A stretch of DNA of 30,860 bases from an uncultured Planctomycetales bacterium (GCA_964358115.1 CAYHNY010000002.1:1-30860); one strand, 5' to 3'; shown: positions 6,840 to 30,375, counted from the first letter of the stretch. The notes: generated by a model not told the origin, from the letters alone. Numbers and translations: made by a program.

Positions 6840-6845
6840 TTGTCT

Positions 6846-8390
6846 TTAATCTAACTTAAACTCGCCTATAGCCTGTTTTAACTGATGGGAAAAAGCCTCT
6901 ATCTGCTGGCTTAAGCTTTCGATCCCCTTAGTTTGAGAGAGGGATTCCTGGCTTAACCCCTGTATATAAACGATAAGTTTTACTGCATCGGAAAAAAGCC
7001 TTTGCTGCTCTTCTATGGCAGAGTATATCTGCAAGGCCAAGGCATTAGTTTCTGCGGTAACGCGGTCGATCTTCTCGTTAGTGCCTTTTATCCTGGTAAT
7101 AAGCTCCAGGTCTTGTTTTATCTCGCTATTTCCGGCATCGGCAAAAGAAACCATGCCGCGGATATCTTCCTGTATCTGGCCGATCATCTTACGGATCTCG
7201 GTAGTGGCTTCCTGGGAACGCTCGGAAAGCCTGCGCACTTCTTTGGCTAAAGCCCCCAGCCCTTCAGGTGCTTCAAACTTATTTACTTCAATGTTAAAAT
7301 TTAAAGCCAGCATATCTATTTTCTTAGAAATTTCCTCTATCCAATCCAGGATCTTATTGATGGACCGGGATTTACCCTCCAGTACCTGGACCTGCTTAAT
7401 AAGCGAATCCATTTTTTCTTTTACCCGGTCTATGCCTGCGACGATTTGAGCCGCCACATCTTTGCCTTCATGAGTAAATTGCGCGCTCATCTTAAGGCTC
7501 CGGGTAGCCTCTTGAGAGCTCCTGGCTACTTCGCTGGCCGTATTCCTTAAATTTTCTATTACCGCACCTGCCTCGTTGATCTGGGAGGCCTGGCGCAGGT
7601 TGATCTCAGTCTGGGCTTGAGAAATCTCCTTCATCTTGTGGCTGCTTTCGACTAGCCTGCCGCCCACCTCCTTGACCCCGCGCATAAGCTCGGCTAAATT
7701 AATCAGCATCTGATTAAAGGCCCTGGCTAAATCGCCTATTTCATCGTGCTTCTCGATATTCAAACGCTGGGTAAGGTCGCCTTTTAATTCCGACAGCGCG
7801 GTAGTGACCCGGGTAATCTTTTGCAGAGGCTGCCTGATGCTATGATTAACGTAAGATATGGATAAGGCCACTCCTAAAACCAGGACAAAGGTCAAAATCA
7901 CTAAAGCGGCGATAGAAACCCGCTGGGACTTATAGGGCGAAATGGATTTTTGGCGGAACTCTACCTGCGCATCCTTGACTAATACATCTAATGCTAATAG
8001 CATATTGTCTATTTTATAAATATTTCTTGAGACATCAGGGTAATAAAGCTGGCTGACCATGGTTTTCAGGATATTTTCTTTATTTATTTTATCGGCTAAA
8101 CTAAAAGAGTGTTCGCGGATAAAATTCAGGGTTGTCTCAGCCTGCTGTTTCAAGACTTCCAGGTAGGCGGAAACGCTTGGGGCATCATTGGCAATGAATG
8201 CCGAACGCCCTTTTAGAAGGTTAGAGCGCATATCCTCAAGCTGGATAACCAGATTGGTCTGATTGATAATCTCATAAGAACTACGGCTGGCCTTATCAAT
8301 GCCCCAGATGCCGATTAAGCCCATGACTACAAAACCCGGATATAAAATAAGCAGCAACAGGGCTATCTTCTTAGCAATAGTCAATCGCAT
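6846..8390 (-). CDS. Methyl-accepting chemotaxis-like receptor (TM, ~125 aa sensor, TM, HAMP, signalling domain with divergent tip)
   Basis: Start revised to the ATG at 8390 (MRLTIAKK), 1 nt after the upstream stop. HAMP GDLTQRLNIEKHDEIGDLARAFNQM; tip MLALN...EVRRLSERSQEATTEI. Confidence 0.88.
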   Translation of the reverse strand: MRLTIAKKIALLLLILYPGFVVMGLIGIWGIDKASRSSYEIINQTNLVIQLEDMRSNLLKGRSAFIANDAPSVSAYLEVLKQQAETTLNFIREHSFSLADKINKENILKTMVSQLYYPDVSRNIYKIDNMLLALDVLVKDAQVEFRQKSISPYKSQRVSIAALVILTFVLVLGVALSISYVNHSIRQPLQKITRVTTALSELKGDLTQRLNIEKHDEIGDLARAFNQMLINLAELMRGVKEVGGRLVESSHKMKEISQAQTEINLRQASQINEAGAVIENLRNTASEVARSSQEATRSLKMSAQFTHEGKDVAAQIVAGIDRVKEKMDSLIKQVQVLEGKSRSINKILDWIEEISKKIDMLALNFNIEVNKFEAPEGLGALAKEVRRLSERSQEATTEIRKMIGQIQEDIRGMVSFADAGNSEIKQDLELITRIKGTNEKIDRVTAETNALALQIYSAIEEQQRLFSDAVKLIVYIQGLSQESLSQTKGIESLSQQIEAFSHQLKQAIGEFKLD

Positions 8391-8391
8391 A

Positions 8392-9207
8392 TTAAAGCTT
8401 CCTTTCTTGGAATAAACTGTAAGCCTGGTCCAGGGTAAGCCTGACCACATCATTCGGGTCAATATCGGTAAATTCCGCACCGGTATGGAATTCATTATCT
8501 TCCAATGAAAAAGCCCTTGACCAGACCACCCTGGCCTTAGCAAATACCGGGCGGCTGTCACAGGGTATAATTATTTTTAAATCTATGGTTTTATTTACTT
8601 CTAAGGGTTTATCCATAATCAGCCTTATCCCCGTAGCGCTAAAATCATATACCTTGACGTTCTGCCAGTTGCCCGGGCCAGACATATGCTGGACGGCTAT
8701 ATGGTCGGGGATACGCTGCGCCCTTCTTTTATCCTGATTAATATTTTTATCTGCCGATGCCGGAATAATTATTTCTTCTTCAACGGACTTACGCAGCAGG
8801 AGCCCCAAAATAAATAGGTTACACGATAAAGGCACCAGAAGTATCACTACCAGTATTACAAATAGCAAGGTCCCGGCCGCAATAATCAAGGTAAGCAGGA
8901 ACAAAAACAGGTTAAAAACAACCAGGTTAGTCAAAAGGCCCCTGATGCCGGAAATGTCTTTACGCGAAATAAAAAAAACTCCAAAGGTAAAAGAAGTAAG
9001 AAGCGAGAAAACTGCCAGCAAAGAAATGGAGGCCCCGGGCAGATGGGTAATCCTAAATTTTAAAAAGTAAGCGGTAAGGTAGAAAAGGATGAGAAAAAAG
9101 AAAATCAACAATAACGCGTTGATAAAAGCGCCGGCCTTCTTATTTTTTATACTTTTCAAGTATTCCGCCTTTGGGGGTTCCACGGACTTTAGCTCAGGGG
9201 GCTTCAT
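8392..9207 (-). CDS. Membrane protein (~4 TM) with C-terminal PilZ domain
   Basis: Start probably at 9207 (ATGA overlap with the cheW stop); the track start is 9225. Four hydrophobic segments, then PilZ motifs RRAQR and DFSATG, ending GAEFTDI. Confidence 0.85.
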   Translation of the reverse strand: MKPPELKSVEPPKAEYLKSIKNKKAGAFINALLLIFFFLILFYLTAYFLKFRITHLPGASISLLAVFSLLTSFTFGVFFISRKDISGIRGLLTNLVVFNLFLFLLTLIIAAGTLLFVILVVILLVPLSCNLFILGLLLRKSVEEEIIIPASADKNINQDKRRAQRIPDHIAVQHMSGPGNWQNVKVYDFSATGIRLIMDKPLEVNKTIDLKIIIPCDSRPVFAKARVVWSRAFSLEDNEFHTGAEFTDIDPNDVVRLTLDQAYSLFQERKL

Positions 9208-9554
9208 CTTTGAAAATCTTCCCATTTTATCATTCGCAGGCTGCCGGGCAGCTGGTCTTGCCCGATAAATTCTATCTCGCCTTCCACCGATAAGGCTAAT
9301 TTCTCATCCAGCTTTTGCAGGATAATAATGCTTTTGCCGATTGTTTGTTTTTGGCCCTGGGGGTTAAAAAATTTACTTGCTGAGACGACCGGCAAAATAT
9401 CCGTTTCAAAGCTGATCACCCCCGATATGTAATCTTTTGCGAAGGGTAAATAAGTAACGGCGCAATCGCCGCCGATGATCTGATAGATATCCTCGGCCTT
9501 TATGCCATAAAGGGCATCGCCCACAGAGAAACCGACGATTTCTTTATTCAACAC
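9204..9554 (-). CDS. cheW: CheW-like adaptor, short and divergent
   Basis: GTG start; FSVGDALYGI..EDIYQII and LPFAKDYISGVI...ILPVV match the CheW pattern; located in the MCP/CheA cluster. Confidence 0.8.
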   Translation of the reverse strand: MLNKEIVGFSVGDALYGIKAEDIYQIIGGDCAVTYLPFAKDYISGVISFETDILPVVSASKFFNPQGQKQTIGKSIIILQKLDEKLALSVEGEIEFIGQDQLPGSLRMIKWEDFQR

Positions 9555-9918
9555 TGCCCTTTCCTCCGGAAACCACCTTTTCCAATGCGTCCAAATTAAA
9601 AGGCTTGGTCATGTAAAAAGAGGCTCCGAGGTTAAGCGCCTCTTTTACGATAAATTCGTCTTTTATCGCCGTAAGCATGATAACCTTTACATCCTTATTG
9701 ATTTCTTTGGCTATCCTTAAAACCTCTATGCCGTTTAACCCCGGCATGAAAATATCTAAAATCAGGACATCGGGCTTTTCTTTGTTCAGTAAGTCCAGCG
9801 CTGCGCCGGCTTCGCAACAAGTAAAAACAACGTAGCCTTTATCCCGGAAATACTTTCTTAAGCTGTTACAGATATCCGGCTCATCATCCACCACTAAAAT
9901 CTTCTTTTGCACCAACAT
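9544..9918 (-). CDS. Single-domain response regulator (CheY-like)
   Basis: VVDDE, VLILDIFMP, MLTA, MTKPF: all canonical receiver residues present. Confidence 0.93.
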   Translation of the reverse strand: MLVQKKILVVDDEPDICNSLRKYFRDKGYVVFTCCEAGAALDLLNKEKPDVLILDIFMPGLNGIEVLRIAKEINKDVKVIMLTAIKDEFIVKEALNLGASFYMTKPFNLDALEKVVSGGKGSVE

Positions 9919-9919
9919 T

Positions 9920-11575
9920 TTATCCTCCTTGCGGCAAGTAAATAATAAAAGTCGTGCCTTTGCCTATCGTGCTGGACACGTCTATCCAACCACCCAGGGA
10001 CAGAATGATCTGGTTTGAAATAAATAGCCCTAAGCCTATGCCCTTCATCTTGGTGGTAAAAAAAGGCTCAAAGATGGCCCTTAAGTTTTCCTGATAGATG
10101 CCTTTTCCGCTATCGCTAAACCTTATGCCGATAAACTTATCTTTTACCTCCGCGCTGATCTCGAGGCTGCCTCCTCCAGGCATCGCCTGATGGGCATTGA
10201 CGATAAGGTTTAAAAAAACCTCTTCGATTTCCGAAATACTGGCTGTAACTTTGGGCATATTTTTAGGCAGGTTTTTAATCACCTGGATGCGGTCTAACTT
10301 AATGCTATGGCTAACCAGCTTTAAGGTCTCTTCTATCGCCGCATTCAAGTCTACGAGCTCATCCTTCTTCTTCCTGGGGCGGCAAAAATTCAACAGCCTC
10401 TCGATAATCTCCGATATGCGCTCAGACTGTTTAACGATAACGCGCGAAGATTCCTGGAGCTCCTGGCCCCGCTCTTTTTTCAAAATATACTGCGCTTCCG
10501 CGGAGATGACTGCCAGGGGGTTGCGCACTTCATGGGCCATCCCGGAAGCAAAATAACCCAGGGCCCCCATTTTCTCGGACTGGATCAGCTCGTTATACAA
10601 TTTATCCTTTTCAATGGCGCTGGCTAAATAATTAGCCAGGGTCATCACAAACTCCAGGTCCTCTTCATTAAAGCCCGTCTTAGGCTGGTTGCGGTTAAGG
10701 TTTAAAACCCCTTTTAACCTGTCTCCTGCTATAAGCGGCACGGAAATGCTGGAGCTGATATTGCTGCGGCTGGCTAAATGCGCGAATAAGGGATATTTAT
10801 CCAATCCTCCGGAAAGAAGCAGCGGTTTTTTATGCTGGGCGACCCATCCAGCGATGTTTTCCCCCATATCAACCACCGAATCCTGAGCGATTTTCTGGGC
10901 TATGCCGAACGAAGATACGATGCGTAACTTATTCTCTAAGAGGTCCAGGATCATTAAAGAACCTGAATCAATATCCATCAGCTTAAGGCAGACATTCATA
11001 ATCTGTTGGCAAAGCTCCTCCCGGCCGACCACCTTAAAAAGCTTGTTGCTGAGTTCAAAAAGCGAGCCCAGGCGCAGAGCCAGGATCCTGGATTTACGCA
11101 GCTCCTCATCCAACAAATCATTGACCAAAGACAAGATTTCTTCCTGCGAAGGGATAAGCCCGGATATATTCTTGGCTTCTTTGCCCTGTATCAATTCCTG
11201 GATGCGGCTTAAAAGGACCTTAAACCCCGGTTCATTGCTGAGTATATCTTTGTTTAAGTAATCCTCTGCCCCCGAATCCTTGCCCCAGAGCACATCCTCC
11301 TTTTCCATCTTTACCGTTAACATAATGATGGGAATATCGGAAGTAACCTTGTTACGCTTCAGAAAACGGCAGGCCTGGTAACCTTTCATCCTGGGCATAG
11401 TGATATCTAAAATAAGCAAATCCGGAGATTCCGCGTAGGTCTTTTCTATGGCCTCTATTCCGTCTGAGGCTAAGGTAACCTGAAAACCTTCTTTTTCCAG
11501 AAAACCCTTTAAGATTTCCCTGGCCGTAGGGCTATCATCGGCGACTAATATCTTCTTCTGCGCATGTTCGGGCAT
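9920..11575 (-). CDS. Cytoplasmic hybrid histidine kinase (REC-GAF-HisKA-HATPase)
   Basis: N-terminal receiver (VADDS, LILDITMP); GAF (GENIAGWVAQHKKPLL, SISVPL..GVLNL, FNEEDLEF); H-box MAHEVRNPL; NLIVNAHQAM; FEPFFTTK; GIGLGL. Confidence 0.93.
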   Translation of the reverse strand: MPEHAQKKILVADDSPTAREILKGFLEKEGFQVTLASDGIEAIEKTYAESPDLLILDITMPRMKGYQACRFLKRNKVTSDIPIIMLTVKMEKEDVLWGKDSGAEDYLNKDILSNEPGFKVLLSRIQELIQGKEAKNISGLIPSQEEILSLVNDLLDEELRKSRILALRLGSLFELSNKLFKVVGREELCQQIMNVCLKLMDIDSGSLMILDLLENKLRIVSSFGIAQKIAQDSVVDMGENIAGWVAQHKKPLLLSGGLDKYPLFAHLASRSNISSSISVPLIAGDRLKGVLNLNRNQPKTGFNEEDLEFVMTLANYLASAIEKDKLYNELIQSEKMGALGYFASGMAHEVRNPLAVISAEAQYILKKERGQELQESSRVIVKQSERISEIIERLLNFCRPRKKKDELVDLNAAIEETLKLVSHSIKLDRIQVIKNLPKNMPKVTASISEIEEVFLNLIVNAHQAMPGGGSLEISAEVKDKFIGIRFSDSGKGIYQENLRAIFEPFFTTKMKGIGLGLFISNQIILSLGGWIDVSSTIGKGTTFIIYLPQGG

Positions 11576-11577
11576 CC

Positions 11578-12135
11578 CTACTCCTTTTTAGGAAAATACC
11601 TCTTCATAAAATCTTCTAATGATTCCTGCTGGTTTTCAATAACATAGGCGCCGTCTTTCATCTGGGGCAAGTCTGCGACATCCGGATATTTGTTTTGCAC
11701 TTCGTTGAGCGTATCCTTTTGCTTTTGCACCATCTGCAACAGCACTTTGTTGTCCATAATCAGGCTATAGTAGGCCAAGGACTGCCGGATGGCAATCCTC
11801 AACTCTTCGTCGCTCCAGGGCTTGGAGATAAACCTGTACACGCCGCCTTCGTTAATCGCCTGAATTGCCACCTGCACATCGGCATAGCCGGTAAGAAGGA
11901 TGCGCACGGTGTCGGGATAAAGCTCTTTGACTTCTTTCAATAGGTCGAGCCCATTCATCTGCGGCATCCTCTGGTCGCTGATGATCAGAGATACTACGGT
12001 ATGCTCCATTATACCCTTTACCTCACGGGGATTATTCAAGGTGAGAATCGTATAGTTTTCGTTTCTCAGCAGGCGCTTAAAAGAACTCAGGATATTCTCT
12101 TCATCATCCACAAACAAAATAGTATGCTGGCGCAT
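11578..12135 (-). CDS. Response regulator with ~60 aa C-terminal coiled-coil extension
   Basis: FVDDE, IISDQRMP, LLTGY, ISKPW; tail DNKVLLQMVQKQKDTLNEVQNKYP...DGAYVIE. Confidence 0.9.
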   Translation of the reverse strand: MRQHTILFVDDEENILSSFKRLLRNENYTILTLNNPREVKGIMEHTVVSLIISDQRMPQMNGLDLLKEVKELYPDTVRILLTGYADVQVAIQAINEGGVYRFISKPWSDEELRIAIRQSLAYYSLIMDNKVLLQMVQKQKDTLNEVQNKYPDVADLPQMKDGAYVIENQQESLEDFMKRYFPKKE

Positions 12136-12161
12136 TTTTTAAAACCTCCGGTTTTTTATCT

Positions 12162-12494
12162 TTACGCCTTCTCGATTCTCTCTTTTATGCGTTCGGCAAT
12201 CCCGGCAAAAACAATGCCCATTCCCGCAGGGCGAATTTCATGCTCGCTTACCTTAATCGGCTCACCGGATGACCAAGCAACCATACCTTCAGTACATATT
12301 TTATCACTTAGATCAAGAAAATAAAATTCCAATTTTGTTTTTGCGCCGGGAGGATCAACTACCTCTGTTTGAATAAACATGCCTCCTGCGCTTATATTTT
12401 TACCGTTACGCAGAAGAAAGAATCTTTCGCTGGCATAATCTACGGGAAAATCTAAAACTATCCTTTTGTGCTTTCTTCTTTCTTGGATCTCCAT
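12162..12494 (-). CDS. Stand-alone PilZ domain protein (putative c-di-GMP receptor)
   Basis: RKHKR (RxxxR) and NISAGG ((D/N)xSxxG), GMFIQT, GMVAWS, GMGIVF. Confidence 0.88.
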   Translation of the reverse strand: MEIQERRKHKRIVLDFPVDYASERFFLLRNGKNISAGGMFIQTEVVDPPGAKTKLEFYFLDLSDKICTEGMVAWSSGEPIKVSEHEIRPAGMGIVFAGIAERIKERIEKA

Positions 12495-19823: not shown

Positions 19824-21401
19824 TTAATTGACCCTGACGGCCAGAATCATCATCTTATCCTTAACCTTGGCCTGGTTAAAATGCAGGACATGCTTAAGGA
19901 TGTCTTTGGCTAAATCCTGAGGGCTTAGATCTTCTGCCTGCGATATTGCGGATTTTACCTCTTCTATGCCAAAAAGTTCGCCGCTATTATTTCTTGCCCG
20001 GGTTATGCCGCTATTAAAAAATACCAGGATATCTGATGGCCCTAAAACTACTTCTTCCTGATGGAAAGAGGCGCCGTCGGATATACCCAGAGGCATAGTA
20101 TCATCACTGCCAAGAATATGCAAATCTTTTTTGCCTGCGTTAAAACGGATAATCGGCTCAAACCCGGCGCTGATAAAACGCATTAACCTGAGCTTCGAAT
20201 CCAACTCAAAACAGATCAGATTGATAAAAAGGTCTTTATAAGCCCCGCGCAAAAGTTGATTCAGGCTCTTGGCGGTTATCTCTAAAGAAGAATCCGTGGA
20301 TTGCAGCCTGAAGACTTCAAATAGCTTCTGATAAAACAGCTCCGTGGCCTTGCCTTTGGAAAAGCTGTCGGCCATAATGATACGACAGCGTCCGTCTTTG
20401 TAGTCAATAAAATTGAAGTATACTTTGTTGTTGCTGAGCCTTTGGATGAAGCGCTGCTTAAACCCGAATTCAAAATTGCCTATCCTTTCCGGTATATCGG
20501 GAAAATAAGGCTCTATTTTTCTTATAAAAATACGTATGAGTAAAAATATCCCGATGATAGAAAAAATTAACAGGACAAGGGTGAGAAAATTTAACTTAAG
20601 CCCCCGGAATCTGATGGCGGATAAGTTCATCTGCAAAATGTTGCTTAAGGCCGCTGCCTGCACCCCTGCCTGCGCAGATACGCCAACAATACATATCTTA
20701 TCTTTAAATATCCGCGAGGTGCGGCGGCTTAAGATAAATCTATGGATTTGTTCGGGGCTATAGGCGTTAAAGGCCTTGGTATAATCTTTGGGTAAATCTA
20801 GATAGGCGGTCACATTATCCGCCAGCGGCAATTTAAGTTTGGATGCAGGAATATTTAAATAACCCGTAGCTACCAGCAGGCTTAAAGCAGGATACAGGCG
20901 ATTTTGATAATTAATGCTTAACGGCACCTCCAGTGATTCAGCCTTCTGCCGAAGATTAAGATGGCCTATGCCGCCGGCAACAGAAAATAAATCCGACCAT
21001 AAGGGAACGCTTATTTTATCCGCGTTAAGCATTCCCTTGTCTTCCCAGACACTTACGGGGTCAAATAAAACGCTAAAATAGACATTGCCGGCGTTGCGGG
21101 AATTTTTAACCAACTCCTGATCTGCCCCCTGCGATGTGGCTTCCGGGCAGGCCATAGTAACTACGATTGCCCTGGACCTTAGAGAGGATAAATCCTGAAT
21201 AACCTGAGCCAGGACTCTTCTTTTTTGCCAGGCCCATTCGCCTAATTTTGCTTCTTTGAGTTCGATAATGACTATCTCCTGATTTATATCTTTGGGTTTG
21301 GCAAATACAGGCGGCGATAAAAAAAACAATATCGAGCATACCGCTAATATGCGGATTGTGGTGAAATTTACCCGGGGTTTAAGTTTTACCTTTTCTTCCA
21401 T
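19824..21401 (-). CDS. Membrane protein with CHASE2-like sensor and degenerate PP2C/SpoIIE phosphatase-like domain
   Basis: CHASE2-like (IVIIEL, W..R..LA.VI, ADQELV, GIGHLN, YPALSLLVA); TM; PP2C-like (IMADSFSKG, SAGFEP, MPLGI, GPSDILVFFNSGITRARN..GELFG). Confidence 0.8.
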   Translation of the reverse strand: MEEKVKLKPRVNFTTIRILAVCSILFFLSPPVFAKPKDINQEIVIIELKEAKLGEWAWQKRRVLAQVIQDLSSLRSRAIVVTMACPEATSQGADQELVKNSRNAGNVYFSVLFDPVSVWEDKGMLNADKISVPLWSDLFSVAGGIGHLNLRQKAESLEVPLSINYQNRLYPALSLLVATGYLNIPASKLKLPLADNVTAYLDLPKDYTKAFNAYSPEQIHRFILSRRTSRIFKDKICIVGVSAQAGVQAAALSNILQMNLSAIRFRGLKLNFLTLVLLIFSIIGIFLLIRIFIRKIEPYFPDIPERIGNFEFGFKQRFIQRLSNNKVYFNFIDYKDGRCRIIMADSFSKGKATELFYQKLFEVFRLQSTDSSLEITAKSLNQLLRGAYKDLFINLICFELDSKLRLMRFISAGFEPIIRFNAGKKDLHILGSDDTMPLGISDGASFHQEEVVLGPSDILVFFNSGITRARNNSGELFGIEEVKSAISQAEDLSPQDLAKDILKHVLHFNQAKVKDKMMILAVRVN

Positions 21402-22339
21402 AGCCAGCTGACAATCCTCTTGCGTTGTTCATCAAATTCCGCCACTTCCAACATAGATACGGCAGCAGGCTCCTCAACTTCTGTTTGGGCCTCTTTTAAT
21501 TCAGCCTGCGCATCTTGGGCCTGTCCATATCCAATGATTTTATTCAGCCATAATCCTTTTTTACCTTCCGGGGTTAAGAAACATTTGTATTCTATTGTCT
21601 TAATACCTACGGGCTGAACACTTAAGTGTTGCTGCCTGAAATAATCGCCAAATTCTCTGGCGATAACGAATATCCCGGGCTTTTGGTTAAAATCAACCCC
21701 ATAGGGATATAGCTTTCTTGCTATATCCCGGTTACGCAGCATCAAATCAAAATGCTTCAAAGCCAGCATCCAAATGCCCTCATCGGCCTGAATCGCAACC
21801 TCCATAATCATCGGCTGCCCTGAGTAGCTTGCCCCCAATATATCGATTTTTTCCAGGTCTTTGGATAATTCCACATTCCTATCAATGCACTTCAAGCCGT
21901 CTTCAATATCCTGGAATCTTTCTATAAGCATATCCAGAAGTTCTTTCTTATCCTCCAGGATTATTTCTTTCAGGATAACAATGTCCTTTTCCTGAACCCT
22001 GAATATTTCCTTCCCTTTTTTAGCGTGGATCAGATTGATGATCCGGGAACGGTCAAATCTGCTGATCTGGCTGAATTTAATACCGACCAGATTTTTATCC
22101 GAAAGCTCCTTGCTCCAGGCGACCTTGCCCTGGGTAAATATAGGCTCAAATTCACCGGGGAGGGAAATTTTTAAAGCCATTTCTTCGGGCAGCTCTTTTT
22201 GTTTATCCACCAGAAAACATACCCCGCTTTCAGATATGTCTTTGGCTTTGCCATTCTGCCCTAAGCCTTTTATATCCAAAGACTTATAGCTTAAGTCTAA
22301 GGCTAAATCCAGGCGCCGGTGCTTTCTTTTGTCTTCCAT
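21386..22339 (-). CDS. PilZ domain fused to a NucS/PD-(D/E)XK-like fold, with a C-terminal tail
   Basis: N-terminal RKHRR and DISESG (PilZ). The second domain (EDGLKCIDRNV, IDILG, GQPMIMEV, GIFVIAREF) resembles the NucS C-terminal nuclease fold, judged by eye. Confidence 0.75.
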   Translation of the reverse strand: MEDKRKHRRLDLALDLSYKSLDIKGLGQNGKAKDISESGVCFLVDKQKELPEEMALKISLPGEFEPIFTQGKVAWSKELSDKNLVGIKFSQISRFDRSRIINLIHAKKGKEIFRVQEKDIVILKEIILEDKKELLDMLIERFQDIEDGLKCIDRNVELSKDLEKIDILGASYSGQPMIMEVAIQADEGIWMLALKHFDLMLRNRDIARKLYPYGVDFNQKPGIFVIAREFGDYFRQQHLSVQPVGIKTIEYKCFLTPEGKKGLWLNKIIGYGQAQDAQAELKEAQTEVEEPAAVSMLEVAEFDEQRKRIVSWLWKKR

Positions 22340-22376
22340 TTTTATACCTGCCTCTTTAACCTAATCCTGACAGACA

Positions 22377-23879
22377 TCATTTATACAAGTTTAGCATATT
22401 TATCTTTAATTTTCTAATTAATTTGATGATTTCTACTTGTCTTTCAATGCCGCCTTCCAAAAACCGGATATGCAGGGCAGAAACCCCCTGTTGGCCCAGG
22501 GTAGGGTCAAGCTCTATCCACTTGCCCACGAATACCTTTGGCCAGCTATGATAGTAGAATCTGCCCTTGGAATAAACTAATCCTGTTACAATTTTAGCGG
22601 GTATGCCTGAGGCCCGAGCAAAAGCAACAAATAAATAGGCATGCTCATTGCAATCTCCCTCTTTATTTTCTAACACGCTGATAGCCGAAGGAAGCCCTAA
22701 AGAGGGGATCTTTTTTATTTTTTTAAATACCCAGTCAAAAATTTTTAAAGCGGCTTTCAGGCTATCCTTTTCTTCACCCACGATATCCCGGGCCTGCTGG
22801 ATTATCTTCGGGGCATCAGATTGAATTAAAAATTCCGGCTTAAGAAACTTGCCTAAATCTAAAGCCCGGATAGGCAAGGCCAGAGGGACAAAGCCGGTTA
22901 GCTCTTCCCTGTTTATTATTGCGACGGTACGCTGCGCGGAAGAAAAAACAACTTTTTGCCGGGGGCCGGAAAAATCAAAGGCCCGCAAATCTACCCCTTT
23001 AAGCTCTAATTTAATACCTTTTAACTCCTGCGGCACGCCTATAATCAGATTAGAGGGTATAGATACCGAAGTCAAAATGTCTTTACCTGATGCATCGGCT
23101 GCTGGCATATCCGTGGCTTTGCCTTGAGGCTCTCTGATAATAACCAGGCCCAGCGGGCTTTCCTGCTTCAGGATTTTTCCATCCTGGTCAACCCAGGTTT
23201 TAACGGTTATGCCTTGATAGGAAATTTCTAGCACAAAAACATCTAAACGCTTATTATCCATAAAATATTTTTCTTTACCTAAAAAATTTATGCTGGCGGT
23301 GGAGATACTTAAAGTAAGCGGATCAAAGATCTTGACTGACCGGGACTTAGTTTTGAGCAGCGACTGCAGAAATAAGGAAGGGTTGAGGTTAGAAAAAAGA
23401 GCTACGTCCCGGTCAATGACCATCTCCTGGGTAGTTGCGTCAGGCGGATTAGACAGGGTAAGGTATATTTTATCATCTTGCAGGCGGCCCTTGACATTCA
23501 TTATATAATCGCCGGATTTAAGGCTAAACTGCAGCGCCTGTAAACGTAAGCCCTCATCCAGAAAGGCATTGCCGTTTATTTCTATGGACTTAAGTTCCCC
23601 CAAAACAGGAGCGCTCAAAAAAGTATTATGATAAACAGCATATCCGCCAAGCCCATTGCTATCCTTGCTTAAATCCTTTAAAATAGTGTTGGAATAACCG
23701 ATCTTGCGCTGATTGTAATAGATGCCCATCCAGTCTTCTCTAAAAGGGATTACGGCGGGAGTTTGGACAGGCTGAGCCGGCGCAAGGGCATAATATCTGG
23801 CAACAACCTCTTTTTTGATTAAAAGGACGGCCATCACCAGCCAGAAAATAAATACGCCGAGCTTAATGGTTAGACGCAT
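22377..23879 (-). CDS. Membrane-anchored or exported transglutaminase-like (papain-fold) protein
   Basis: N-terminal hydrophobic segment; catalytic-type triad motifs GDCNEHA (Cys), YHSW (His), WIELDPT (Asp); ARASGIPAK. Confidence 0.9.
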   Translation of the reverse strand: MRLTIKLGVFIFWLVMAVLLIKKEVVARYYALAPAQPVQTPAVIPFREDWMGIYYNQRKIGYSNTILKDLSKDSNGLGGYAVYHNTFLSAPVLGELKSIEINGNAFLDEGLRLQALQFSLKSGDYIMNVKGRLQDDKIYLTLSNPPDATTQEMVIDRDVALFSNLNPSLFLQSLLKTKSRSVKIFDPLTLSISTASINFLGKEKYFMDNKRLDVFVLEISYQGITVKTWVDQDGKILKQESPLGLVIIREPQGKATDMPAADASGKDILTSVSIPSNLIIGVPQELKGIKLELKGVDLRAFDFSGPRQKVVFSSAQRTVAIINREELTGFVPLALPIRALDLGKFLKPEFLIQSDAPKIIQQARDIVGEEKDSLKAALKIFDWVFKKIKKIPSLGLPSAISVLENKEGDCNEHAYLFVAFARASGIPAKIVTGLVYSKGRFYYHSWPKVFVGKWIELDPTLGQQGVSALHIRFLEGGIERQVEIIKLIRKLKINMLNLYK

Positions 23880-23933
23880 CTCTAGAATGCTGCGTTGTTT
23901 AAGAAGGCTGATAAAGAATAGATTAGCTAAAGC

Positions 23934-26075
23934 CTATTTTTTCTTGGCTTCCAGTTCTAAAGAAATACGCTGCCAGCGAATGGCTTCGGCTACATCGCCT
24001 AAATCAATATAGAATTGGCTCAAGCTTGCGGCTGAACGACGGAAGTATTCGTTCTCTGAAACAAGCATCACGAAATATTCGGGGTCGATGTCCAAAGGAT
24101 AACACTGCCCTTTTCTGATACGCAAGAGATTAAAATTACTGAATTTTTTAAACAAGAGATTCAGCTCTTCCTGCTTGTTTAAAACAACAAGGCCCCTGGC
24201 TAGATAGCTCATCACATCCAGCTGATAGGGATTTTTGGCTAATACCATCTGCCAATTTTGTATCGCCTCATCTATAAGCCCCTCCAGCCAAAGCAGCTGA
24301 GCCAGGGAATTGCGCACGTAAAAAATATCGCCTGATTTTAAGGACTCTTCATAGATGCCTTGCGCCGCTGAAATATTCTTTCTCTTCTCGGCGACCTTGG
24401 CCTTCAGCAGGTTAATAAGCAGCCCTATCCCTGAAGTTTTTGATTGCTGGAATTTAAGGCTATCCCACATATTCTCTGCCTTATCCAGCCAGCCTTTAGC
24501 ATAATAAAGACAGCCTAAGGAAATTTTAGCGTTGTAATCCTGAGGTTTATCGCGCAGGCGCTTTTCTAATGTTAAGATCAGAGTATTTATCTTAACCTGC
24601 TTATTTATGTGCGAACTCATTTCGCCATACTGGTCGGATTTTTTATAGTAATAATTTGCTTTTTTAAGGCGGTTGGCCTCATCCTCTAAAAGGGCCCTCT
24701 GATAATATTTCTTGAATTTAAGGCTTTTGTTTTCCTGGATACGATAGGTAATATAATACCTGAGCAGGTAAAAAAGATCGTTCTTGAAGGCGATCTTTTC
24801 AGAAACTGAAGGCGGATTCAGGATATATTTTATTTCCAGGAGCCTTCCCTGCACAAAGGCATCGGCGGGGTTTATCTTAAGCGCCTTTTCGAAATAGTCT
24901 TGCGCATCATCCCAATTCTGCGCTTTAAATAATTCATCGGCTTTTTGAACCAAGGAAACATACTCTCTCTGGGAATTTATCTGAAGCCTCTTGGCATGGT
25001 CAATGAGGATCTGGATCTTATTCAAATCCTCTAGCAGGACAAACCCTTGAGCCTTTTTCCATTCGACAATTGCCCGGAAGTATTCCTCTTTCTTAAAAAA
25101 ATCTTCGCCGCTAAGCAGGTATTCGCGGGCTACAACCGGAATATTTTGCAGGATCTTTGAGACTGCGGACTCAAAATTAGAGGCGTTAATTTCACGGGAT
25201 TCAGAAGCAGGCAGGTCATGAAGGGTCATTTTGCCCCGGGCCTGCGTGATTAGAATAGTGGCCTCTCTGTGAAAAAGGTCAAATACAAACACCTTGCCAT
25301 ATTCCTCGATGGCTTCGTTATAAAGCCCTCTATCCGCCAATGCCTTTCCCCTATTTAGATACCCCTTAATCAAACGTGGAGCTGCCTTATTTATTTCTTT
25401 TTGAATTTTTTTGAAATATTCCGTATCGGAATGCTCGTTTATCAATTTCGTATAACCCGTAAGGAATGATGCGTTATAATATTCCTCCCGGGAAACCATT
25501 TCATGAAGCTGGCGGTAAATGTCTCTGACCGGCGCATCTTTAAACTGGCGCCCATAGAGATGATTGACCAGGGCTGCCAAGCCAATAACTATGGCCAGGC
25601 TTACCCCAAGTATCATCGATGAGGCCGGTAAGGCATAGTTTTTTTCGACAAAATCCGAAGGCTTAAATCTCTGGTGGTAGGGGCGGACAAAAGACATGGG
25701 GTCAGTAAGGCTGACCAGGTCCATCATTTGTTTTTGCAATCGCACATTCTGGTCTAAGGGGACAAGCTTGATCAGCTCGTTTAAATAACCCGCCGCATCT
25801 TTATAGTGCTCTTCCTTAAGGCAGGCTTCAACTTTAAGATGCAGGTCCTCAATAACCTTAAGTTTATCTTCGGCATCTTTTTTTAATTTTTGCGCTTCCT
25901 GATGAGAGCTATCCATCCCTAAAAGTTTGGTTAGCTCTTCGGATGCCTTTGAAAAATCATTATTGACCAGGTAATCTTTGGCGGAAATCAGGTGTTTCTG
26001 GATCTTCTCCCGGCAGGAAATACAAAAATCTTCTTCTAAGGCGACCGCGCTTGTTTTACAGCCCTTGCAGACCAT
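23934..26075 (-). CDS. Bitopic TPR protein with an N-terminal Zn-ribbon-like CxxC..CxxC
   Basis: CKGC...CISC at the N-terminus; TPR-like helices (YNEAIEEYGKVF, WDDAQDYFEKALKINP, DEAIQNWQMVLAKNP); one TM (MILGVSLAIVIGLAALV). Confidence 0.8.
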   Translation of the reverse strand: MVCKGCKTSAVALEEDFCISCREKIQKHLISAKDYLVNNDFSKASEELTKLLGMDSSHQEAQKLKKDAEDKLKVIEDLHLKVEACLKEEHYKDAAGYLNELIKLVPLDQNVRLQKQMMDLVSLTDPMSFVRPYHQRFKPSDFVEKNYALPASSMILGVSLAIVIGLAALVNHLYGRQFKDAPVRDIYRQLHEMVSREEYYNASFLTGYTKLINEHSDTEYFKKIQKEINKAAPRLIKGYLNRGKALADRGLYNEAIEEYGKVFVFDLFHREATILITQARGKMTLHDLPASESREINASNFESAVSKILQNIPVVAREYLLSGEDFFKKEEYFRAIVEWKKAQGFVLLEDLNKIQILIDHAKRLQINSQREYVSLVQKADELFKAQNWDDAQDYFEKALKINPADAFVQGRLLEIKYILNPPSVSEKIAFKNDLFYLLRYYITYRIQENKSLKFKKYYQRALLEDEANRLKKANYYYKKSDQYGEMSSHINKQVKINTLILTLEKRLRDKPQDYNAKISLGCLYYAKGWLDKAENMWDSLKFQQSKTSGIGLLINLLKAKVAEKRKNISAAQGIYEESLKSGDIFYVRNSLAQLLWLEGLIDEAIQNWQMVLAKNPYQLDVMSYLARGLVVLNKQEELNLLFKKFSNFNLLRIRKGQCYPLDIDPEYFVMLVSENEYFRRSAASLSQFYIDLGDVAEAIRWQRISLELEAKKK

Positions 26076-26078
26076 ATT

Positions 26079-27308
26079 TTACACGCCGCTTTGCCTAAAC
26101 AACGCGATCATGTTCCACATAGGCATGAATATAGCTAAAGCCATACCTAATACCACCACACCCAGAACCGCAGTCATCAGCGGCTCGATCATCGTGGTCA
26201 GGTTTTGCACCGAGGTACGCACTTCCAGGTCATAATAATCGGATACCGCTTGCAACATGTCAGAGATAGCTCCGGTTTTTTCTCCGATGGCGATCATATG
26301 CCCTACCAGGGGAGGAAAAATCTTACTGTTCAATATGGAGCCGGCGATGCCCCGGCCGTCAGCTACGCTATGGCGCATAAGCTCTATCTCCTTGGCGATG
26401 ACCACGTTGCCAATAGTAGTAGAGACGATTTCCAGGGTCTTTAAAATAGGCAGTCCGGATTCATTCAAAACATTGAGCATGTTGGTAAACCTTAACATCG
26501 CCACCTTAGTAAAAAGTTTCCCGAACACGGGCAATCTTAACATCAGCGTATCATACTGCCACCTGCCTTGCTGCGTATTGATATAGCGCTTAAAAAGAAA
26601 AACCAGGCCGGCAATCGCCGGCAGCGCAATATACCACCACTTGGTGATAATCTGATTTGCCAAAATCATAACCTGGGTAGGCAGAGGTAACGCGGCATTG
26701 AATCTTGAATACATGGTCGCAAATTTGGGGATAACAAAAACTATCAGAAAGAACGATGCCGCGGTCATGGCCACGACAGTCATAATGGGATAACGCATCG
26801 CGGTCTTGACGTTGGTATCAATCTGCATATCCCGCTCCATCATCTCGGCCAAACGCAATAAAATCTTATCCAGGACACCGCCGGCTTCACCGGCGACTAC
26901 CGAATTAACATATAGCTCAGAAAATATCAAAGGGTATTTATCAATCGCCTGAGAAAGGCTGGCGCCCCCTTCAATATCGGCGATGATCTTTTTCAAAACC
27001 CCGCTAAACACCGGGTTCTCCGCCTGTTCTGACAAGGCCTGAAGCCCGGTGAGAATAGGTACACCGCTCTTAATAATGGTGGCGAACTGCCGCGTAAATG
27101 CCACCAGATGCTGCGCGCCTACTTTTTCTTTTGCTTTAAAGATTCCGCCCAAGCCGCCGGCAGCGGTACCCTGGTCCAGGGCGATAGAAAGAGGCAGAAA
27201 GCCCATGCCGTCTAAGCGCTGCGAGGCCTCGGCTTCGGTTTCAGCTACCAATATACCGGTAACTTCTTTTCCGTTGGGGTCCCTGGCTTTATATTTATAG
27301 CTCGGCAT
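26079..27308 (-). CDS. pilC: Type IV pilus / T2SS inner-membrane platform protein (PilC/GspF/MshG family)
   Basis: FTRQFATIIKSGVPIL, AGEAGGVL, AMRYP, FVIPKF, LRLPVFG, IAIGEKTG, MIEPL, FMPMW. Confidence 0.96.
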   Translation of the reverse strand: MPSYKYKARDPNGKEVTGILVAETEAEASQRLDGMGFLPLSIALDQGTAAGGLGGIFKAKEKVGAQHLVAFTRQFATIIKSGVPILTGLQALSEQAENPVFSGVLKKIIADIEGGASLSQAIDKYPLIFSELYVNSVVAGEAGGVLDKILLRLAEMMERDMQIDTNVKTAMRYPIMTVVAMTAASFFLIVFVIPKFATMYSRFNAALPLPTQVMILANQIITKWWYIALPAIAGLVFLFKRYINTQQGRWQYDTLMLRLPVFGKLFTKVAMLRFTNMLNVLNESGLPILKTLEIVSTTIGNVVIAKEIELMRHSVADGRGIAGSILNSKIFPPLVGHMIAIGEKTGAISDMLQAVSDYYDLEVRTSVQNLTTMIEPLMTAVLGVVVLGMALAIFMPMWNMIALFRQSGV

Positions 27309-27325
27309 AAAAATGCTCCTTTTTC

Positions 27326-28138
27326 TTAAACGCTAAAATCTGCCACTGCCTGCTGGACTATTTGCTTATCCACCGCTGCCGCTTTCTTGCCAAATCCGGA
27401 GAGCAGAGACAAATCGCAGATACGGTTTATGCGCCGGGGGATCCCGGCTGAATTTTCATAGATAAATTTTATCGCCTCGGCAGTAAATATAGATTCGCTG
27501 CCGCCGGCGACTTTCAGGCGGTGCTTGATATATTTTTCCGTATCCTCAGGGCCAAACTTATCCAGATGGCAGCGGATAGCAATTCTCTGCTCTAGCTGTT
27601 TAAGGTTGGAAACCTTATCCTTTAGTTCCGGCTGGCCGCAAAGAATAAGCGTCAGCAAAAAGCGGTCTTCGAGCTGAAAATTAAGCAAAAGTCTCAATTC
27701 CTCAAATATCCGGTCATCCTGAATCACATGCGCTTCATCAATAAAAACTACCGTCTCGCGTCCGTCGCGCATATTATCAATCAAGACATTGTGCAAGATC
27801 TCCAAAAGCGGGTCCGCCATGATCTCGCCGGCCTTAGCCGGCAGGTCCACTGATTTGAGGCTGCGCACGATTGACCTTAAAAGCTCGATATAGCTTACCT
27901 GAGGGTTGGTAATAAAAGCTGCCTTATATTTATCCCCCAGATCCTTTAATATGGCTCTTCCTAAGAGTGTCTTGCCGCAGCCAAAGGTTCCGGTAAGCAT
28001 GCCGGCCCCCATCCTCTCAACAATGCAATAAGTAAGCTTCATCAGCGCGTCTTCGTGCTCGCCGGAAAGATAGAGAAAACGCGGGTCAGGGGTATTATTA
28101 AACGGCTTTTCGTTAAGCTTCCAGTGTTTCTCGTACAT
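27326..28138 (-). CDS. ExeA/MshM-like AAA ATPase (T2SS/MSHA-associated), without a C-terminal peptidoglycan-binding domain
   Basis: MYEKHWKLNEKPFNNTPDPRFLY; Walker A GTFGCGKT; Walker B FIDEAH; GQPEL; QRIAIR; GIPRRINRICD. Confidence 0.92.
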   Translation of the reverse strand: MYEKHWKLNEKPFNNTPDPRFLYLSGEHEDALMKLTYCIVERMGAGMLTGTFGCGKTLLGRAILKDLGDKYKAAFITNPQVSYIELLRSIVRSLKSVDLPAKAGEIMADPLLEILHNVLIDNMRDGRETVVFIDEAHVIQDDRIFEELRLLLNFQLEDRFLLTLILCGQPELKDKVSNLKQLEQRIAIRCHLDKFGPEDTEKYIKHRLKVAGGSESIFTAEAIKFIYENSAGIPRRINRICDLSLLSGFGKKAAAVDKQIVQQAVADFSV

Positions 28139-28155
28139 CTTTTTAAGGCTGTGCT

Positions 28156-29985
28156 TTAGGTTTTCTTGGTCAGCCAGCTGGCGATTCTTTTCTCGTAGTC
28201 ATCGACATCAGCCGGCCTTATTTTAACTTCAGCCTTCTGGGCTTCCTGAACGGGTTGCGATGCGGAAGATATTACCCTCTCTACCTGCATCGCCATATCC
28301 GTCGGCGGCTTGATCTCCACCTTATCTTCGGTGGCCCGGGAAACTTCTTCCCAGGTGGTCAAGCCAGCTAAAACTTTATCCAAACCGTCTTCGCGCAAAA
28401 GCCGCATGCCTTTTTCAACCGCCTTATCGCGAAGCAAAACGGTAGATACCCCCTGCAAGATCATTTCCCTTAATTCATCATCGATCATCATTAATTCATA
28501 AATTCCGGAACGCCCCCGGTAACCTGTTCCTTTGCAACTCGCGCAACCCTTGCCTTGATAAAATTTTAGAGTACCTTTAACTTTCAGGTTTAATTTCTTG
28601 ACCAGGGTCGGCGAAGGGTCATAAGCCTCTTTGCACTCGGGGCAAATCAGGCGCACCAGGCGTTGAGCCATCATGCCGATAGCCGAAGCCGAAATAAGAA
28701 AAGGCTCCACTCCCATATTAACCAAGCGCGTAACCGCAGAAGCTGCGTCATTGGTATGCAGGGTAGAAAATACCAAATGGCCGGTCAAGGCTGCCTGTAT
28801 GGCAATGACTGCAGTCTCTAGGTCTCGGATTTCACCGACCATGATTACATCCGGGTCCTGCCTTAAAATAAAACGCAGGCCATTGGCAAAGGTCAGCCCT
28901 GCCTTAGGGTTAACCTGGGTCTGGCGGATAAGGCCCAAACGGTACTCTACGGGATCCTCAATGGTGATGATATTGCGATCAATGGAATTAATGCGCATCA
29001 GCGAAGAATAAAGCGTAGTGGTTTTACCGGAACCGGTAGGCCCGGTGCTTAAGATTATCCCATAGGGCCTTAAAATCAAATCTTCATACTTCTTTAAAAG
29101 CTCCGGGCTAAATCCCATCTTCTCCAAACCCACCAAAACCCCTGAGGTATCCAAAAGACGTATAACTACATTTTCTCCCGCTACCGTGGGAAAACTGGAA
29201 ACGCGCATATCCACAAGGTGGTTGTCGGTAGTGATTTGGAAATGGCCGTCTTGAGGCAGGCGGCTCTCGGCAATATCCATGCCGCACAAAATCTTGATGC
29301 GGGAAATTATGGGCAGCTCCAGATGTTTAGGCGGAGACGGTATTTCATGCAAAACACCGTCAATGCGGAAACGGATGCGCAGGAATTTTTCGTCGGGCTC
29401 AATATGAATATCGCTGGCCCTGTCATGCACAGCCTGAGTGATAATCAAGTCCACCAGTTTTGCCACCGGAGACTCTTTGGATGTCTCGGCCAACATAGAA
29501 GCGCCAGGCTTTAATGAAACTTCGCCCATCTTCTCGGCTAATTCAGCGGATACGTCTTTCTTTCCGTAAAATTTGTCCAGCGCGCGCTTGATTTCATCCT
29601 CCGGGGCATACACGCATTCTGCCAATAAACCGCTAGAAGCGCCCAACTGGTCAAGCATCATTAGATTTAAAGGATCGGTGGTGGCAATGGTCAGTGAATT
29701 TCTCAGCTTAAAAAGCGGGATGATAGTGTATTTGCGGCACAGCTCTTCCGAGACAATCTCTTTGACTTGCGGATCGATGATGTAATTATCCAGGTCAATA
29801 TAGATAACGCCTTTGCCCTGGGCGTCGATATTATATATTTCATCCTTAGCGACCAGATTCATATCCGAGACAACCTGCAGAAAAGGGACCCGCCTTTTAT
29901 CCACCTCTGACTGAGCCACCTTTATCTGCTCGGGGCTTAATAACCCTTCGTCAACTAAGGCCTGGATTAATTCCTGGTCTTTCAT
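28156..29985 (-). CDS. pilB: Type IV pilus / T2SS extension ATPase (PilB/GspE/MshE family) with a C-terminal extension
   Basis: ASDIHIEP, RFRIDGVL, Walker A GPTGSGKTT, TIEDPVE, LRQDPDVIMVGEIRD, STLHTN, Zn motifs CPEC/CASC, GYRGR. Confidence 0.97.
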   Translation of the reverse strand: MKDQELIQALVDEGLLSPEQIKVAQSEVDKRRVPFLQVVSDMNLVAKDEIYNIDAQGKGVIYIDLDNYIIDPQVKEIVSEELCRKYTIIPLFKLRNSLTIATTDPLNLMMLDQLGASSGLLAECVYAPEDEIKRALDKFYGKKDVSAELAEKMGEVSLKPGASMLAETSKESPVAKLVDLIITQAVHDRASDIHIEPDEKFLRIRFRIDGVLHEIPSPPKHLELPIISRIKILCGMDIAESRLPQDGHFQITTDNHLVDMRVSSFPTVAGENVVIRLLDTSGVLVGLEKMGFSPELLKKYEDLILRPYGIILSTGPTGSGKTTTLYSSLMRINSIDRNIITIEDPVEYRLGLIRQTQVNPKAGLTFANGLRFILRQDPDVIMVGEIRDLETAVIAIQAALTGHLVFSTLHTNDAASAVTRLVNMGVEPFLISASAIGMMAQRLVRLICPECKEAYDPSPTLVKKLNLKVKGTLKFYQGKGCASCKGTGYRGRSGIYELMMIDDELREMILQGVSTVLLRDKAVEKGMRLLREDGLDKVLAGLTTWEEVSRATEDKVEIKPPTDMAMQVERVISSASQPVQEAQKAEVKIRPADVDDYEKRIASWLTKKT

Positions 29986-29994
29986 AAGACATCC

Positions 29995-30375
29995 TTATAT
30001 TTTCAGATACAACTTAACCTTTTCTAAAATAGCGGCGTTATTAAAACGGGAAATTAGTTCTTCCGCGCCGACTTCCTTGGATAAAGACGCGCTCTGTTCA
30101 TCGATATGATGGGCGAGTAAAATCACCGGGATCATTTGATAGCGCTTGTCAAATTTTAAGAGCCGGGATAATTTATAACCGTCTATGGAAGCCAGGCTAT
30201 CTTCAATGATAACCAAATCGGGATGTTGACGGCGCACTTTCTTTAAAGCATCCTGCCCGTCGGAACAAGCGATGACCTCAACGCCGATCAAAAGCTCTTT
30301 TAGGCGCTTGCCGATTGCATCTAAAAATAATGTGTCGGTATCAACGATAAGGATTTTTTTGTTGAGGGTGGTCAT
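29995..30375 (-). CDS. Atypical (pseudo) receiver domain protein
   Basis: Receiver fold pattern (ILIVDTD, DGQDALKKV..QHPDLVII, IPVILL, EVGAEELI), but Glu replaces the phospho-Asp and the conserved Thr and Lys are absent. Confidence 0.82.
   Translation of the reverse strand: MTTLNKKILIVDTDTLFLDAIGKRLKELLIGVEVIACSDGQDALKKVRRQHPDLVIIEDSLASIDGYKLSRLLKFDKRYQMIPVILLAHHIDEQSASLSKEVGAEELISRFNNAAILEKVKLYLKI

Follow-up and report, generated by a model that had tools for sequence, protein, structure and literature searches.

A C-terminal peptide common to a PilB-type pilus motor and a PilZ-domain protein in an uncultured Planctomycetales bacterium: a candidate membrane tether

We analyzed a stretch of 30,860 nucleotides from an uncultured Planctomycetales bacterium (GCA_964358115.1, CAYHNY010000002.1:1-30860), hereafter the window, in which all large open reading frames (ORFs) lie on the minus strand. 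Two of them code for proteins of unrelated families: a PilB-type ATPase, the predicted motor for extension of a type IV pilus, and a fusion protein that starts with a PilZ domain, a putative receptor of cyclic di-GMP (c-di-GMP). Both proteins finish in nearly the same short peptide. PilB ends in DVDDYEKRIASWLTKKT and the PilZ fusion in AEFDEQRKRIVSWLWKKR, and each carries the motif KRIxSWLxKK one residue before the stop codon. An earlier reading of the window, made from the sequence alone (the sequence-only reading), had placed the two copies at 28162-28191 and 21392-21421 with eight of ten positions identical; both the coordinates and the identity proved to be exact. The features discussed below are collected in Table 1.

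Table 1. Positions of the two tailed proteins, their C-terminal parts and the neighboring genes in the window. AF2, AlphaFold2; pLDDT, predicted local distance difference test; TIGR and Pfam names refer to the matched models.
Feature	Position	Strand	Description
PilB/MshE-type pilus extension ATPase	28156-29985	-	609 residues, C-terminal extension of ~56 residues; T2SSE and MshEN matches
PilB linker	28210-28332	-	Residues 552-592, 41 residues, variable; AF2 pLDDT ~28-35
PilB tail peptide	28159-28209	-	Residues 593-609 (DVDDYEKRIASWLTKKT); acidic start, then basic W-L putative helix
PilZ fusion protein	21386-22339	-	317 residues; PilZ domain, uncharacterized middle domain, linker, tail
PilZ-fusion linker	21458-21538	-	Residues 268-294, 27 residues, acidic, low complexity
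PilZ-fusion tail	21389-21457	-	Residues 295-317 (SMLEVAEFDEQRKRIVSWLWKKR)
CHASE2-SpoIIE (PP2C-like) membrane protein	19824-21401	-	Pfam CHASE2, SpoIIE; two hydrophobic segments
Overlap of the PilZ-fusion gene end and the CHASE2-SpoIIE gene start	21386-21401	-	16 nt, read from the sequence
ExeA/MshM-like AAA+ ATPase gene, between pilB and pilC	27326-28138	-	Pfam AAA_22; TIGR03015-like
PilC/MshG platform protein	26079-27308	-	Pfam T2SSF, 193 bits

The identity of the two proteins was assigned from domain matches and signature motifs. In PilB, the T2SSE domain (PF00437) scored 451 bits against a cut-off of 24.9 and the MshEN-type N-terminal domain 66.6 bits, while the Walker A motif (GPTGSGKTT) and a tetracysteine zinc motif (CxxC...CxxC) are visible in the translation. 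The TIGR02538 model aligned to residues 6-553 only, with 603.7 bits against an equivalog cut-off of 675.65; the ATPase is thus of the PilB type, but not a certified PilB equivalog. The other protein matched the PilZ domain (PF07238) with 48.6 bits (cut-off 22.5), and both canonical PilZ motifs, RxxxR (R5-K-H-R-R9) and DxSxxG (D34-I-S-E-S-G39), can be read in its translation. By fold and motifs it is a predicted c-di-GMP binder. The sequence-only reading had described its middle domain as NucS-like, an assignment that we abandoned: the PF01939 (NucS_C) match of 16.3 bits is below the cut-off of 24, and a four-sequence profile matched NucS/EndoMS in the PDB at E ~0.6 only.

The shared C-terminal motif is real and not a product of chance. 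When the entire assembly (731 kb in 56 contigs, 61% complete) was scanned in all six frames, the motif appeared on these two ORFs only. With 8 of 11 identical positions the PilB/PilZ pair ties for the top rank among ~350,000 stop-anchored C-terminal pairs of the genome, and nearly all other top-scoring pairs are visibly alike beyond the compared stretch, as paralogues would be. Another pair with the same score, from ORFs of 221 and 184 residues on contigs C11 and C14 (...KLLEPQENLK and ...KLKEPAENLK), stood outside that beyond-stretch comparison. When the last 60 residues of PilB and the PilZ fusion were compared by BLASTP, only the final 17 aligned (10/17 identical, E=2e-5), so the linkers of the two proteins are not detectably related. 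The DNA is similar as well, as had been pointed out earlier. This similarity follows from that of the proteins, and at four of the eight shared residues the codons differ between the genes.

On PilB the tail is an add-on, in agreement with the sequence-only reading. The TIGR02538 model stops at residue 553 of 609, and untailed paralogues finish near ...EEVLRVT. The additional ~56 residues comprise a linker (38-43 residues) and a predicted helix (~17 residues). In a set of 40 relatives, each having ~3-20 PilB-like matches, we read 29 PilB loci and found the tail in seven genomes, in one of which it occupies a separate frame; none of the other PilB paralogues whose ends were read has it. A scan for the peptide pattern in one genome per species (185,579 species) gave 17 confirmed loci, all of them PilB genes and nearly all from genomes labelled Omnitrophota (the seven related genomes and these 17 loci partly represent the same genomes). 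The consensus of the tailed PilBs is V-E-V-K-x-S-D-F-(D/E)-E-Y-Q-K-R-(I/V)-A-(S/N)-W-L-S-R-K-K at the very C-terminus, with K, R, W, L and K invariant. The preceding linker is scrambled in sequence but measures 38-43 residues in 13 of the 14 aligned PilBs, the core end having been wrongly picked by the script in the 14th. Three short V-E-x-K-like motifs, (V/I)E(L/I)KP, VEPF(I/L)K and VEVK, recur in these linkers; the extension may be partly structured or may serve as a spacer of defined length. Synonymous codons vary freely within the tails (CGC, AGA, AGG, CGG and CGT for Arg; CTG, TTA, CTA, TTG and CTC for Leu) while the amino acids are fixed, which shows that the peptide itself is under selection. 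Two further searches were uninformative: a word-based search with the PilB tail returned the query alone, its 5-residue words being too specific, and a profile search of the PDB with the tail gave no relevant match.

In a maximum-likelihood tree the tailed PilBs form a single clade (support 100/100), with the window PilB as the earliest branch. One untailed PilB (genome G019, L092:15068-16729, contig C4) is nested within this clade, indicating that the tail was lost there secondarily. In the same cluster the adjacent ExeA-like gene is also gone, and all other cluster genes are kept in order. This natural deletion variant may be useful for probing the function of the tail. The separate frame mentioned above belongs to genome G035 (L010:1346-1447; L076:1670-1834), where 55 residues with the tail follow a PilB ORF that ends at about residue 562; the gene is orthologous in all other respects, and the split reflects either a frameshift or an error of assembly.

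The tail of the PilZ fusion, 23 residues long, is likewise an add-on. Among 5.8 billion proteins searched with the PilZ fusion there were just a near-identical copy and a single close orthologue, P0005 (68% identity), which retains the tail and terminates in LSLLEIAEFDEQRKRIVNWLWRKK. The P0005 contig has the same neighbors (transglutaminase upstream, CHASE2-SpoIIE downstream) and the same overlapping start. Between the window and P0005 the tails share 78% identity (of the changes in the 23 codons, 9 are synonymous and 5 conservative), compared with ~70% for the folded parts and 41% for the linker. More distant orthologues from genomes G028 and G036 (34-36% identical when aligned, 35-38% by the search), whose genes are also followed by a CHASE2-SpoIIE gene, stop ~23 residues earlier. 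Conservation of the motif among orthologues, which the sequence-only reading had raised, therefore holds for the tailed PilBs and P0005 and fails for these two. Taken together, the motif is a selected, portable module that follows a variable linker in both proteins, and by the codon comparisons it is the peptide, not the DNA, that is under selection in both.

Apart from these two families the tail was not encountered. A tail profile run against 1.84 billion representative proteins retrieved only C-terminal fragments of PilB, P0005 and two spurious repeat proteins; a third tailed family was found neither there nor in the 185,579 species genomes, and in metagenomes scanned for the PilZ-type tail, the window's own population was the sole source of matches. 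In five related genomes with a tailed PilB the profile matches PilB alone, contrary to the earlier suggestion that the tail is shared within the system in general. The appearance of the PilB peptide on a second protein is thus a lineage-specific event, confined to the narrow lineage of the window. The PilZ tail agrees with the PilB-clade consensus (L067) at 12 of 18 positions, the acidic part included, and with its own PilB at 10 of 18. Because of this fit, a copy from a pilB gene would be the simplest origin; the codon differences between the two tails imply that any such event was not recent. The end of the PilZ-fusion gene overlaps its neighbor. The Leu-Trp codons (CTATGG) contain the ATG of the CHASE2-SpoIIE gene, and the Lys-Arg codons (AAGAGG), 13 nt upstream of that start, resemble a Shine-Dalgarno sequence. 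The CTATGG overlap recurs in the P0005 contig, though the Arg codon there is CGC. Judged from this arrangement, the CHASE2-SpoIIE gene is probably translationally coupled to the PilZ fusion.

By gene content, the tailed PilBs reside in a cluster resembling that of the mannose-sensitive haemagglutinin (MSHA) pilus. The cluster runs from a PilM-PilN fusion through PilO, a small protein, a secretin, a coiled-coil protein and a small tetratricopeptide repeat (TPR) protein to PilB, and continues with the ExeA/MshM-like ATPase, PilC, a histidine kinase, a PilZ protein, a receiver, an MshEN-PilZ fusion and a pilin. The window departs from this arrangement in three respects. A receiver-like gene (29995-30375) lies upstream of pilB, as it does for untailed paralogues; pilC is followed by an inserted block that consists of a 713-residue TPR protein, a transglutaminase, the PilZ fusion, CHASE2-SpoIIE and an ABC transporter; and the MshEN-PilZ fusion was not found in the window. 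In every other tailed-PilB cluster that extends far enough, this last gene codes for a protein of ~276 residues in which a copy of the PilB N-terminal (MshEN-type) domain is joined to PilZ (L065:10235-11065 and equivalents, L063-L079). The MshEN-PilZ fusion and the PilZ protein with a PilB tail thus both combine PilZ with a part of the motor, each in its own way.

The sequence-only reading had put forward several products of the locus as a common receptor for the tail. PilC follows every tailed PilB locus that is long enough (45-53% identity). The ExeA gene adjoins 15 of the 17 tailed loci and none of the untailed ones, but the linkage is not strict: G004 and L066 keep the conserved tail without an adjacent ExeA gene. 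Conversely, G010 has ExeA genes 59-61% identical, and its listed PilB hits are only ~45% identical, with ends outside those read. ExeA was accordingly rejected as an obligate receptor. The TPR proteins were discarded too, since the small one has a signal peptide and is therefore expected to be exported, and the 713-residue one of the window has no counterpart beside other tailed PilBs. The small TPR protein (L065:3627-4280 and equivalents) itself ends in an amphipathic helix, S/E-W-(I/V)-(K/R)-Q-I-K-K-E-L, with a spacing different from that of the tail; this is probably a TPR capping helix and the likeness superficial. As for the receiver at 29995-30375, similar receivers also precede untailed PilBs, and it was dropped as a specific partner. 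No cluster gene tracks the tail strictly, the ExeA, TPR, PilM-PilN, PilC and PilZ proteins varying independently, which is what a lipid target would predict.

To judge what the peptide might do, we considered its predicted structure and physical properties. The helix proposed in the sequence-only reading appears in both AF2 models, at low confidence, as a single helix on the conserved segment after an unstructured linker. In the PilB model (mean pLDDT 57) it spans residues 591-607, and no secondary structure is assigned to residues 552-590; in the PilZ-fusion model (mean pLDDT 31) it spans residues 296-315. The tail follows poorly conserved, low-pLDDT linkers (41 residues in PilB, 27 in the PilZ fusion), an architecture of folded core, variable linker and predicted terminal helix like that of a membrane-targeting sequence. 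The last 11 residues have a net charge of +4 to +5 and a HeliQuest-style lipid-binding score D, derived from hydrophobic moment and net charge, of 1.75-2.06, compared with 1.55 for the Escherichia coli FtsA sequence. The C-terminus of E. coli K-12 FtsA, read from the genome, is GSWIKRLNSWLRKEF. It shares K-R-(L/I)-x-S-W-L-x-K with both tails at the same distances from the stop, and 6 of 11 positions are identical; in the genome's own null distribution, an identity of at least 6/11 occurs in ~8 of 100,000 C-terminal pairs. Residues 405-420 of FtsA are its membrane-targeting sequence, removal of which abolishes membrane targeting (bioRxiv 10.1101/2021.01.12.426377). With its core matching this sequence in register, an amphipathic membrane-targeting helix, one of the functions suggested earlier, is the best-supported reading of the tail. 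In addition, ATPases of the same superfamily, namely EpsE (with EpsL) and FlaI, are strongly stimulated by acidic phospholipids (PMC6325625).

We tentatively interpret the shared tail as a membrane tether of the FtsA/MinD type, and would give this interpretation slightly less than an even chance. The disordered linker, ending in a helix of ~17-23 residues, would be a portable C-terminal tether. Its last 11 residues (K-R-I/V-x-S/N-W-L-x-K/R-K) would act like the membrane-targeting sequences of FtsA and MinD, the side chains of I, W and L entering the inner membrane and the flanking Lys and Arg binding acidic lipid head groups. In MinD and FtsA, weak single anchors gain strength from oligomers; likewise, the six weak anchors of a PilB hexamer might hold the assembled motor at the membrane beside the PilC platform. 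In the lineage of the window, the peptide would have been added to the putatively c-di-GMP-binding PilZ fusion, itself inserted into the pilus cluster together with a membrane partner, the CHASE2-PP2C-like protein. There the tail may keep the c-di-GMP sensor close to the membrane, in the layer that the motor would also occupy, near both the membrane partner and the pilus machine. The PilZ tail is the more hydrophobic of the two (A to V and T/S to W; mean 0.38 versus 0.23 for the PilB tail), as would suit a protein with fewer anchor copies than a hexamer.

Several observations weigh against a purely lipid-directed role. The hydrophobic moment of the last 11 residues, 0.35-0.46, reaches only the 68th-87th percentile among the genome's C-termini, and that of the E. 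coli FtsA sequence (0.59-0.84) is well above both tails. The conserved positions of the module include the acidic segment D/E-F-D/E-E, an Ala and a polar-face Lys that is invariant; these are not obviously constrained by lipid and look more like specific protein recognition. The linker length is tightly kept, and its V-E-x-K motifs recur. Only one PilB paralogue per genome is tailed, which looks like an address tag and not like a general membrane anchor. Finally, both AF2 models are poor, owing to shallow alignments.

The restriction to one paralogue and the conserved acidic and polar positions speak for a different function, in which the tail is a short linear docking peptide for a protein of the pilus machine, comparable to the C-terminal peptide of FtsZ on its linker. 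We consider this the main alternative, if on the whole an unlikely one. The ExeA/MshM-like ATPase, the cytoplasmic domain of PilC, the PilM-PilN fusion and a PilZ protein would be candidate docking sites, and the PilZ fusion might be recruited to the same site as PilB, or compete with it there, coupling c-di-GMP to pilus extension; such competition at a common receptor, proposed already in the sequence-only reading, is possible. In PilBs 55-59% identical to that of the window, ~17 consecutive residues are near-invariant, the acidic and polar-face ones among them, despite the scrambled linker, and the PilZ tail retains the same acidic and polar residues (E-F-D-E, K-R, S/N). By our helical-wheel reading the hydrophobic residues (F/Y, Y, I/V, W, L) make only a narrow stripe. 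Moreover, the ExeA gene that separates pilB from pilC arises with the tail at the base of the clade and disappears with it in G019, and the MshEN-PilZ proteins offer a parallel case of PilZ joined to a part of PilB. The candidate receptors themselves fit less well. ExeA is decoupled from the tail in G004 and L066 and possibly in G010, the small TPR protein carries a signal for export, receiver genes also accompany untailed PilBs, and G019 has no tail though its cluster genes other than the ExeA-like one persist. The in-register match to a proven lipid-binding FtsA peptide would also have to be a coincidence. Alternatively, the tail could pair with itself, two antiparallel copies zipping up between PilB subunits or directly between the PilZ fusion and PilB. 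Its bipolar charge (D-x-D/E-E, then K-R ... R/K-K-K), single hydrophobic stripe and putatively heptad-like spacing (F/V19, Y22, I26, W29/L30) would allow this, the identical module occurs on both presumed partners, and none of the genes tracks the tail as a separate receptor would. Nevertheless, we regard self-pairing as very improbable, as it derives purely from the sequence pattern, the helix would be as short as 17 residues, and in most genomes only PilB is tailed, so that the ancestral role cannot have been PilB-PilZ pairing.

Docking and zipping share a common consequence. The tail would be a sequence-specific address tag, holding PilB at one site of the pilus machine or joining it to a partner, and the PilZ receptor would have acquired the tag to occupy or gate that site; to this more specific scenario we assign a distinctly low probability. 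If true, a second messenger would control a type IV pilus through a receptor that mimics the docking peptide of the motor, with the MshEN-PilZ proteins of the sister genomes as a parallel case. Explanations without a function at the protein level, namely chance, a recent DNA duplication or a constraint from the ribosome-binding site and start codon downstream, can draw on the fact that AAGAGG and CTATGG of the PilZ-fusion gene coincide, respectively, with the Shine-Dalgarno-like run and the start codon of the gene that follows, and that in most pilB loci the purine-rich codons of S-R-K-K lie directly upstream of the next gene. Yet pilB of the window has an 18-nt spacer before the next gene, half of the shared residues are encoded differently in the two genes, and the pair ranks at the top of the genome-wide comparison. 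Above all, orthologous codons vary synonymously around fixed amino acids and the tail is more conserved than the linker in both families. This pattern in effect rules out an explanation at the level of chance, DNA or ribosome binding, which we consider next to negligible. A C-terminal degradation tag (basic, ClpX-type) or a secretion signal was also considered; either would leave the conserved amphipathic and acidic parts unexplained. The remaining probability falls to mechanisms beyond those listed here.

Comparison with known systems helps to place the membrane-tether interpretation. Like the sequences of FtsA and MinD, the tails lie at the extreme C-terminus after a flexible linker, may form a basic amphipathic helix and, in the case of FtsA, share the core in the same register. 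The carriers, a secretion-superfamily ATPase and a PilZ protein, are unrelated to FtsA and MinD; the relation is therefore one of analogy, not homology. Unlike FtsA, the tails do not have the upstream W-I turn and the terminal Phe, whereas they do possess a conserved acidic stretch, which FtsA does not; their hydrophobic moment is lower, and the window organism's own FtsA terminates differently. FtsA and the ribosomal protein bL17 of the same organism also finish in basic amphipathic peptides after linkers. The bL17 protein (L099:1432-2010; contig C4, ~22280-22858; 193 residues) has a long Lys/Pro/Glu-rich tail terminating in KQFLGGLRKIFKKERDSL, and its terminal peptide is MinD-like, basic and amphipathic. 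FtsZ combines a disordered linker with a conserved C-terminal peptide that binds FtsA, ZipA and others as a 'grappling hook'. It resembles the tails as a tether in having a variable disordered linker of ~40-50 residues before a conserved peptide of 12-17 residues that begins acidic, ends basic and has an aromatic-Leu core, but there is no sequence relationship and the tails are devoid of D-I-P-x-F-L.

Among pilus systems, the closest gene set is that of the Vibrio cholerae MSHA pilus. MshL (secretin), MshM (ExeA-like), MshN (TPR), MshE (ATPase) and MshG (platform), as tabulated for the msh operon (PMC4624765), correspond to the genes around the tailed PilBs (PilM-PilN fusion, PilO, secretin, exported TPR protein, ATPase, ExeA-like ATPase and PilC), although the gene order differs. 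Both systems are tied to c-di-GMP through PilZ and MshEN proteins; in Vibrio, c-di-GMP acts via the N-terminal domain of MshE and not via a separate PilZ fusion with the tail of the motor. To our knowledge, MshE has no such C-terminal tail. In Xanthomonas, a PilZ-domain protein is linked physically or functionally to the PilB motor of a type IV pilus in the PilZ-FimX-PilB system. There, the PilZ protein attaches to PilB at the N-terminal region and is not known to bind c-di-GMP itself, and the system differs from the present one in having no shared terminal peptide.

C-terminal tether peptides, PilB motors and PilZ receptors are all known elements. Our literature search found no paper describing a C-terminal anchor or tail on PilB or on any pilus ATPase, and as far as that search reaches, a tail common to a motor and a c-di-GMP receptor is new. 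ATPases of pili and secretion systems are thought to reach the membrane through PilM/GspL, PilC and similar partners. If a motor carried a lipid anchor or address peptide of its own, this would be a new way of positioning it, one that could matter in tiny cells running many (10-20) paralogous pilus motors. The same ~20-residue peptide on a c-di-GMP sensor would be a clean natural case of peptide shuffling that co-locates a regulator with its likely target. Overall, the tail probably serves to attach both proteins to the cell membrane or to a single site that they have in common.

Downstream of the pilus genes, at 5265-12494, the window contains a chemosensory module with CheA, an MCP, a PilZ protein, CheW and a receiver (CheR and CheB had no match among the window ORFs scanned), together with several kinases.

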